From the IMG/VR virus record IMGVR_UViG_2751185958_000013: DNA of 7,406 bases; one strand, 5' to 3'. Source of the DNA: a virus (lineage: Duplodnaviria > Heunggongvirae > Uroviricota > Caudoviricetes). Of this stretch, positions 4,333-6,959 are shown one piece after another. The position numbers and the translations under genes are program-made. The notes beneath the pieces were generated by a model. That model was not told the DNA's origin. It did no database searches and saw only the letters and a program-made list of their open reading frames with translations. Every line of letters starts with the position of its first letter. Within the stretch, counting starts at the first letter, position 1.

Positions 4333-6959
4333 ATGAGCGACCTTGCGAGAGAAATTACACCGGTCAACATTGAGGAAGAGCTGAAGAGCTCCTATCTGGA
4401 TTATGCGATGTCGGTCATTGTTGGCCGTGCGCTGCCAGATGTCCGAGATGGCCTGAAGCCGGTACACCGTCGCGTACTTTACGCCATGAACGTACTAGGC
4501 AATGACTGGAACAAAGCCTATAAAAAATCTGCCCGTGTCGTTGGTGACGTAATCGGTAAATACCATCCCCATGGTGACTTGGCGGTTTATGACACGATCG
4601 TCCGTATGGCGCAGCCATTCTCGCTGCGTTACATGCTGGTAGACGGTCAGGGTAACTTCGGTTCCATCGACGGCGACTCTGCGGCGGCAATGCGTTATAC
4701 GGAAATCCGTCTGGCGAAAATTGCCCATGAACTGATGGCCGATCTCGAAAAAGAGACGGTCGATTTCGTTGATAACTATGACGGCACGGAAAAAATTCCC
4801 GACGTCATGCCAACCAAAATTCCTAACCTGCTGGTGAACGGTTCTTCCGGTATCGCCGTAGGTATGGCAACCAACATCCCGCCGCACAACCTGACGGAAG
4901 TCATCAACGGTTGTCTGGCGTATATCGATGATGAAGACATCAGCATTGAAGGGCTGATGGAACACATCCCGGGGCCGGACTTCCCGACGGCGGCAATCAT
5001 TAACGGTCGTCGCGGTATTGAAGAAGCTTACCGTACCGGTCGCGGCAAGGTGTATATCCGCGCTCGCGCAGAAGTGGAAGTTGACGCCAAAACCGGTCGT
5101 GAAACCATTATCGTCCACGAAATTCCGTATCAGGTAAACAAAGCGCGCCTGATCGAGAAGATTGCGGAACTGATAAAAGAAAAACGCGTGGAAGGCATCA
5201 GCGCGCTGCGTGACGAGTCTGACAAAGACGGTATGCGCATCGTGATTGAAGTGAAACGCGATGCGGTCGGTGAAGTTGTGCTCAACAACCTCTACTCCCA
5301 GACCCAGTTGCAGGTTTCTTTCGGTATCAACATGGTGGCATTGCACCATGGTCAGCCGAAGATCATGAACCTGAAAGACATCATCGCGGCGTTTGTTCGT
5401 CACCGCCGTGAAGTGGTGACCCGTCGTACTATTTTCGAACTGCGTAAAGCTCGCGATCGTGCTCATATCCTTGAAGCATTAGCCGTGGCGCTGGCGAACA
5501 TCGACCCGATCATCGAACTGATCCGTCATGCGCCGACGCCTGCAGAAGCGAAAACTGCGCTGGTTGCTAATCCGTGGCAGCTGGGCAACGTTGCGCGATG
5601 CTCGAACGTGCTGGCGACGATGCTGCGCGTCCGGAATGGCTGGAGCCAGAGTTCGGCGTGCGTGATGGTCTGTACTACCTGACCGAACAGCAAGCTCAGG
5701 CGATTCTGGATCTGCGTTTGCAGAAACTGACCGGCCTTGAGCACGAAAAACTGCTCGACGAATACAAAGAGCTGCTGGATCAGATCGCGGAACTGTTGCG
5801 TATTCTTGGTAGCGCCGATCGTTTGATGGAAGTGATCCGTGAAGAGCTGGAGCTGGTTCGTGAACAGTTCGGTGACAAACGTCGTACTGAAATCACCGCC
5901 AACAGCGCAGACATCAACCTGGAAGATCTGATCACTCAGGAAGATGTGGTAGTGACGCTCTCTCACCAGGGCTACGTTAAGTATCAGCCGCTTTCTGAAT
6001 ACGAAGCGCAGCGTCGTGGCGGGAAAGGTAAATCTGCCGCACGTATTAAAGAAGAAGACTTTATCGACCGACTGCTGGTGGCGAACACTCACGACCATAT
6101 TCTGTGCTTCTCCAGCCGTGGTCGCGTCTATTCGATGAAAGTTTATCAGTTGCCGGAAGCCACTCGTGGCGCGCGCGGTCGTCCGATCGTCAACCTGCTG
6201 CCGCTGGAGCAGGACGAACGTATCACTGCGATCCTGCCAGTGACCGAGTTTGAAGAAGGCGTGAAAGTCTTCATGGCGACCGCTAACGGTACCGTGAAGA
6301 AAACTGTCCTCACCGAGTTCAACCGTCTGCGTACCGCCGGTAAAGTGGCGATCAAACTGGTTGACGGCGATGAGCTGATCGGCGTTGACCTGACCAGCGG
6401 CGAAGACGAAGTAATGCTGTTCTCCGCTGAAGGTAAAGTGGTGCGCTTTAAAGAGTCTTCTGTCCGTGCGATGGGCTGCAACACCACCGGTGTTCGCGGT
6501 ATTCGCTTAGGTGAAGGCGATAAAGTCGTCTCTCTGATCGTGCCTCGTGGCGATGGCGCAATCCTCACCGCAACGCAAAACGGTTACGGTAAACGTACCG
6601 CAGTGGCGGAATACCCAACCAAGTCGCGTGCGACGAAAGGGGTTATCTCCATCAAGGTTACCGAACGTAACGGTTTAGTTGTTGGCGCGGTACAGGTAGA
6701 TGACTGCGACCAGATCATGATGATCACCGATGCCGGTACGCTGGTACGTACTCGCGTTTCAGAAATCAGCATCGTGGGCCGTAACACCCAGGGCGTGATC
6801 CTCATCCGTACTGCGGAAGATGAAAACGTAGTGGGTCTGCAACGTGTTGCTGAACCGGTTGACGAGGAAGATCTCGATACCATCGACGGCAGTGCCGCGG
6901 AAGGGGACGATGAAATCGCTCCGGAAGTGGACGTTGACGACGAGCCAGAAGAAGAATAA
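4333..6959 (+). CDS. gyrA: DNA gyrase subunit A; S83L allele (codon 83 = TTG at 4579-4581); reading frame as given is interrupted by a 1-nt deletion near 5594-5596
   Basis: Translation from 4333 ([53 protein letters not shown]...) is GyrA and includes the active-site Tyr in [11 protein letters not shown] (TAT at 4696-4698). Frame 1 matches GyrA through ...[10 protein letters not shown] (to about 5595); frame 3 continues from about 5595 with [25 protein letters not shown]... to ...DVDDEPEEE and TAA at 6957-6959. Both halves together give 875 codons if one base is restored. Confidence 0.92.

Follow-up and report, generated by a model that had tools for sequence, protein, structure and literature searches.

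A one-base deletion that splits gyrA in a Shigella boydii-type sequence is very probably a consensus undercall

Homopolymer undercalls in 454/Ion Torrent, PacBio CLR and Nanopore data share with the broken gyrA described here the loss of a single base inside a run of identical bases, the restriction of that loss to one record in which an otherwise perfect gene becomes two adjacent ORFs, and its reappearance at this position in other data prone to error; they differ from it in that the gyrA run is just 2 nt long. That indels left behind in long-read assemblies truncate predicted proteins is a documented problem (bioRxiv 10.1101/285049; PMC12007338). Genuine Shigella pseudogenes, made by IS insertion, nonsense mutation or frameshift, come from the same type of genome and have the same look of a broken ORF. 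However, lineage-mates have them in common and the genes they hit are dispensable, like yfaL, whereas the gyrA lesion is unshared and lies in an essential, drug-selected gene.

Programmed –1 frameshifting, as in dnaX, IS1 insAB′ and IS911 orfAB, is similar in that two overlapping frames can be fused by a –1 shift, but the gyrA frames come without a slippery heptamer, a stimulatory structure or a conserved overlap. Both IS1 and IS911 use programmed –1 frameshifting, and the annotation match of the IS1 found here carries a ‘programmed frameshift’ note. Finally, a GyrA in two pieces is conceivable in principle, as GyrA59 (N-terminal) and GyrA33 (C-terminal), made separately, can reconstitute activity in vitro. 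Their cut lies near residue 523, at a domain boundary, and not at 421, which is inside the breakage-reunion domain (Pfam 32–507), and the second gyrA piece at this locus is without translation start signals.

The window (the whole 7,406-nt stretch of DNA that was analysed) is a Shigella boydii-type locus with the order IS1, yfaL remnant, ubiG, gyrA and IS911, in which the following elements lie around gyrA:

1–300, plus strand: 3′ end of IS1 (insB tail and right inverted repeat ...aagttggagtcattacc), which cuts off yfaL
301–3336, plus strand: yfaL remnant (AIDA-I family autotransporter), truncated by IS1 at 300/301 and with in-frame stops at 772–774 and 2806–2808
3464–4186, minus strand: intact ubiG, 240 aa, the exact protein being present on at least 1,000 contigs
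7079–7406, plus strand: left end of IS911 (IS3 family), 119 nt past the gyrA stop codon

The same IS1 genes are called at the equivalent place in five related loci (L015–L019). At the other end, homology to E. coli stops at 7078, and 7079–7406 is 99.7% identical to IS911 copies on Shigella plasmids. Judged by its sequence, yfaL is a genuine, lineage-wide pseudogene: public assemblies contain its identical 663-aa fragment in 116 blocks and its identical 150-aa fragment in 413. Position 772 (T versus C) divides the lineage into loci with 121-aa and 663-aa fragments and loci with a 778-aa fragment. IS911 (7079–7406; compare 14336–15940 of L015) occupies the place that yfaA has downstream of gyrA in E. 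coli; beyond it, lineage-mates retain just a 131-aa DUF2138 (yfaA) remnant, followed by an IS66-family element. The last letters of the window are a run, ...ttaaaaa, within IS911 orfA, which is presumably where the programmed –1 frameshift motif of this element lies.

Within gyrA itself, the features as written are:

4333–5682, plus strand: 5′ frame of gyrA, 449 codons with an ATG start, encoding GyrA 1–421 and 28 out-of-frame residues up to a TGA stop
4579–4581, plus strand: codon 83, TTG (Ser83Leu), polymorphic in the lineage
5173–5175, plus strand: codon 281, Val to Ile, common to a subset of lineage-mates
5574–6959, plus strand: downstream ORF, 461 aa, with a GTG start and its first ATG at 5598, its translation containing ...AMLERAGDD...
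5584–5594, unstranded: remnant of the perfect 12-nt palindrome GGCAACGTTGCC, which equals its own reverse complement and of which the missing C is the last base
5593–5594, plus strand: deletion site in codon 421, GTT-GCC-GCG minus one C giving gttgc-gcg
5598–6959, plus strand: 3′ part of gyrA in frame 3, native M423–E875, undamaged and ending ...DDEPEEE

An ORF of 323 codons also runs antisense to gyrA (4495–5466, minus strand). It was called automatically as a gene in two assemblies (L004 and L005) in which the 5′ half of gyrA went uncalled, and it is almost certainly spurious.

The window reads gctgggcaacgttgcgcgatgctcgaacgt at 5580–5609, in the wider context ...ccgtggcagctgggcaacgttgcgcgatgctcgaacgt..., and the lesion sits in a run of identical bases, the CC of GCCGCG being reduced to C. 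Across the site the deleted form of the allele is GTTGCGCGATG and the C-containing form is GTTGCCGCGATG. Alignment to the intact gyrA of E. coli STEC388 (L014) over 2,844 nt brings out five differences: one is V281I, two are synonymous, one is intergenic and the fifth is a 1-nt gap in codon 421 (GCC to GC-). The 6,779 nt that align with E. coli UTME-9 contain a single gap. The single gap against STEC388 confirms that the 1-nt deletion proposed in a preliminary description of this DNA is a real feature of the sequence, deterministic and not statistical, and the alignment to reference gyrA that had been suggested there as a check places the absent base at codon 421. The description had left this base as a C or G in gcN-gcg; the E. 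coli and lineage alignments identify it as the C of GCC. Translation of both ORFs likewise bears out a reading frame that runs in frame 1 up to codon 421 and then in frame 3. The stop at 5682 and the 421 native residues given earlier are correct, but the out-of-frame tail is 28 residues long by translation and not 29.

The expectation of one ORF of 875 codons was right: restoring the C yields an 875-aa GyrA with S83L and V281I, and 21 contigs carry exactly this protein, recorded as DNA gyrase subunit A of Shigella boydii. It contains PF00521 (DNA_topoisoIV) at residues 32–507 and six copies of PF03989 (DNA_gyraseA_C), and it matches the solved E. coli GyrA (6rks_A) over residues 1–875 with 1916 bits. 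Since the DNA_topoisoIV domain spans 32–507 and the break is at 421, the frameshift cuts this domain. The 449-aa ORF matches it at residues 32–413 (profile positions 1–374 of 432), and the second ORF carries profile positions 375–432 and the six C-terminal propeller blades, so that the 3′ part of gyrA comprises the end of the topoisomerase domain and all six beta-propeller blades of the C-terminal domain. Between the two matches the Pfam profile skips residues ∼414–450 as an insertion, position 374 falling on residue 413 and position 375 on residue ∼450. The 1,362 nt past the lesion are the same as in the lineage-mate L020 (0 differences) and differ from E. coli STEC388 by 2 synonymous changes, so that no degenerative change is seen downstream of the frameshift. 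An intact downstream part fits an artefact and a very recent event alike and does not by itself separate the two.

Lineage-mates of the window were collected by looking up the exact 663-aa and 150-aa YfaL fragments as lineage markers in public assemblies. The resulting set (L015–L034 minus L025, which is on the same contig as L015) holds 19 distinct loci and includes the chromosomes CP026762, CP026795, CP026866, CP026731, CP026839, CP026797, CP026811 and CP026766 together with many drafts. The full layout of IS1, yfaL′, ubiG, gyrA and IS911 is present at 13 of the 19 loci; the other six are without the stop at 772 and have IS911 located elsewhere. All 19 have GCCGCG at the site and a single 875-aa gyrA call, and they share GGCAACGTTGCCGCGATG at this position with the E. 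coli references. A multiple alignment over the whole window has 26 variable columns, of which just the gap at 5593/5594 sets the window apart from all other loci. One draft contig, L020 (LPTP01000172.1), aligns with the window over 7,021 nt without a mismatch and with a single gap, the missing C. The yfaL lesions are common to many independent assemblies and the gyrA lesion to none of them, which provides an internal control that tells real decay from error.

The same loci bear on the state of GyrA in this lineage. Ser83Leu, the classical quinolone-resistance substitution, results from a T at position 4580 that is present in the window, L017 and L020, the other lineage loci having a C. Other changes in the quinolone-resistance-determining region fall at position 4591, with D87N in L017 and D87Y in L021 and L023. 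From their distribution among the sequences, S83L, D87N and D87Y look like independent acquisitions inside one lineage, which points to selection that continues to act by way of a working GyrA. Neither E. coli nor Shigella can do without gyrA, and selection for S83L operates solely through functional GyrA.

Searches for the deletion in public sequence covered genomes, proteins, metagenomes and the literature. An 81-nt probe over the site matched 4,887 complete E. coli genomes, and the deletion is absent from every one of them (4,887/4,887), the best match being 98.8% identical, at 81 of 82 columns. Neither the 449-aa nor the 461-aa product was found among ∼15 billion proteins at 153 billion gene positions, the exact deletion string had no match in species-representative genomes, a scan for the gyrA/IS911 junction was likewise empty, and a literature search returned nothing relevant on a gyrA frameshift in S. 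boydii. A scan of 241 million metagenome records found the deleted string in two human-gut metagenome contigs from the ENA (L002 and L003), which have k-mer coverages of 1.6x and 2.3x. When two blocks of 12 and 6 nt within the yfaL repeats are set aside, the indels of these contigs are all 1 nt long and lie in homopolymers of 2–3 nt, and all but two are deletions. L002 and L003 are separated by 69 substitutions and hence come from different strains, yet they have four identical undercalls, at the equivalents of window positions 2709, 3360, 3927 and 5593. That the undercalls are shared despite this distance marks them as recurrent, site-specific technical errors. By these sequence comparisons, recurrent and sequence-specific undercalls have entered public contigs.

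Lesions of this type are also found in the lineage assemblies themselves, in which a comparison of roughly 110 kb brought out six private 1-nt homopolymer indels, 4 of them deletions and 2 insertions. At such a base rate, a frameshift in a 2.6-kb gene of some record is unremarkable. In single assemblies of the lineage (long-read chromosomes or NCTC assemblies), private 1-nt deletions in T3, C5 and G5 runs each split transposase ORFs; they lie in the IS66-family copy downstream of gyrA (L015, L026 and L031) and, in L031, also at the equivalent of window position 960. Like the gyrA lesion, they are probably errors of assembly.

Unrelated assemblies (L004–L013) break 3–12 nt downstream of the deletion, at the equivalents of window positions 5597–5605. 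In Logan, eight contigs that stem from different runs and strains start at the equivalent of 5597 or 5598, and at this place a gap of 99 Ns interrupts the NCBI chromosomes CP050193.1 and CP050222.1, the flanks of which overlap by 8 and 3 nt. The 453-aa product that starts at ATG 5598 is found on 52 contigs, and the products from the next six codons tested are found on 1–2 contigs each. A repeat (a second copy of the following 30–44 nt) was rejected as the cause of the break, since the stretch occurs at one place per genome and complete E. coli genomes contain no second copy of the following 44 nt. As for the N runs in CP050193 and CP050222 being in-place masks, this was rejected for the first, the flanks of which overlap; the second is colinear. 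The 9-nt overlap at 5597–5605 resembles a transposase tagmentation stagger or a coverage drop-out, and the break may mark a tagmentation hot spot or such a drop-out. We speculate that, had short reads of this kind been used to polish the source assembly, a local drop-out could explain the survival of this particular long-read error.

If the deletion is genuine and tolerated in a viable, quinolone-resistant S. boydii, GyrA activity would have to come from two reassembling polypeptides (1–421 with its 28-residue tail, and 423–875) cut inside the C-gate region, or from low-level –1 frameshifting that proceeds without a signal. Such a bacterium would overturn expectations on an essential drug target. 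The position of the break lends this idea some support: it falls within residues ∼414–450, which are skipped by the Pfam profile and hence poorly conserved, so that a split would be least harmful there, and with an ATG (M423) 3 nt past the lesion the two pieces would be without Ala422 only. A –1 shift anywhere in 5571–5682 (112 nt) would restore full-length GyrA. However, this interval contains no X XXY YYZ slippery heptamer and no homopolymer of at least 4 nt, and there is no Shine-Dalgarno-like motif within 20 nt upstream of GTG 5574 or ATG 5598. A stimulatory RNA structure is equally lacking (MFE of –48.4 kcal/mol against a shuffle mean of –50, z = +0.43), and coupling of termination to re-initiation is unavailable as the stop of the first frame is 85 nt downstream of ATG 5598. 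No relative keeps the split arrangement, gyrA being in a single frame in all those compared. Programmed frameshifting, transcriptional slippage and re-initiation are therefore rejected on the missing heptamer, homopolymer, Shine-Dalgarno motif and RNA structure, and a tolerated lesion is very unlikely.

A deletion that is genuine but very recent and non-functional, arising in the clone or culture that was sequenced (for example in a subpopulation, a dying stock or one copy of an unrecognised duplication that the assembler collapsed), is unlikely; under it, gyrase would be supplied by a second intact gyrA copy or by the majority genotype. The lack of decay downstream of the lesion agrees with a recent origin, as it does with an artefact, and IS elements, through which duplications can arise in Shigella, flank the 6.8-kb segment on both sides. 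Yet 0 of the 19 lineage-mates carry the deletion, the truncated product is in no assembly of public reads, the window has no sign of a second copy (the stretch occurs once per complete E. coli genome), and no culture can have, as its majority genotype, a null allele of an essential gene. Reductive evolution, by which gyrA would have become a pseudogene of the whole lineage like yfaL, has next to no probability. Although the chromosome is IS-rich and of the Shigella type and the neighbouring yfaL is truly decayed, intact gyrA in all 19 lineage loci refutes this reading, and gyrA is moreover under visible positive selection (S83L, D87N and D87Y having arisen independently) and is established to be essential.

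The deletion is present in the record and private among its lineage-mates, and in other data the very same base is lost through error. From these comparisons it is very probable that the missing C is a consensus undercall and not a property of a living bacterium. The proposed cause would be a one-base undercall of the CC that closes the palindrome GGCAACGTTGCC, likely due to an indel-prone sequencing chemistry or left as a residue of incomplete polishing, in which case the error would have arisen in the base-calling or consensus of this assembly. This reading draws its support from the absence of the deletion at all 19 lineage loci and in the 4,887 E. coli genomes, from the presence on record of the repaired protein and nowhere of the truncated one, from the same loss of CC to C in error-laden, low-coverage contigs, and from the lack of any recoding or re-initiation signal. 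Against it count the run of just two Cs, which is a less typical site of PacBio consensus error than one of at least 4 nt, and the fact that this is the sole indel in 7.4 kb, so the window does not look like a generally poor assembly. The base-calling or assembly error that the preliminary description regarded as the most economical explanation is hence strongly supported, short of proof.

The real gene is almost certainly a single gyrA of 875 codons that encodes a quinolone-resistant subunit with S83L and V281I, as in other S. boydii isolates, and the record should not be interpreted as a pseudogene of gyrA. Pipelines that type resistance by translating gyrA would handle this record wrongly, although the S83L call stays valid as it is upstream of the shift. 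That an essential gene is frameshifted usefully marks the source assembly as one in need of polishing, and the present case separates real gene decay in Shigella, which is common to assemblies, from record-specific errors, which are private.
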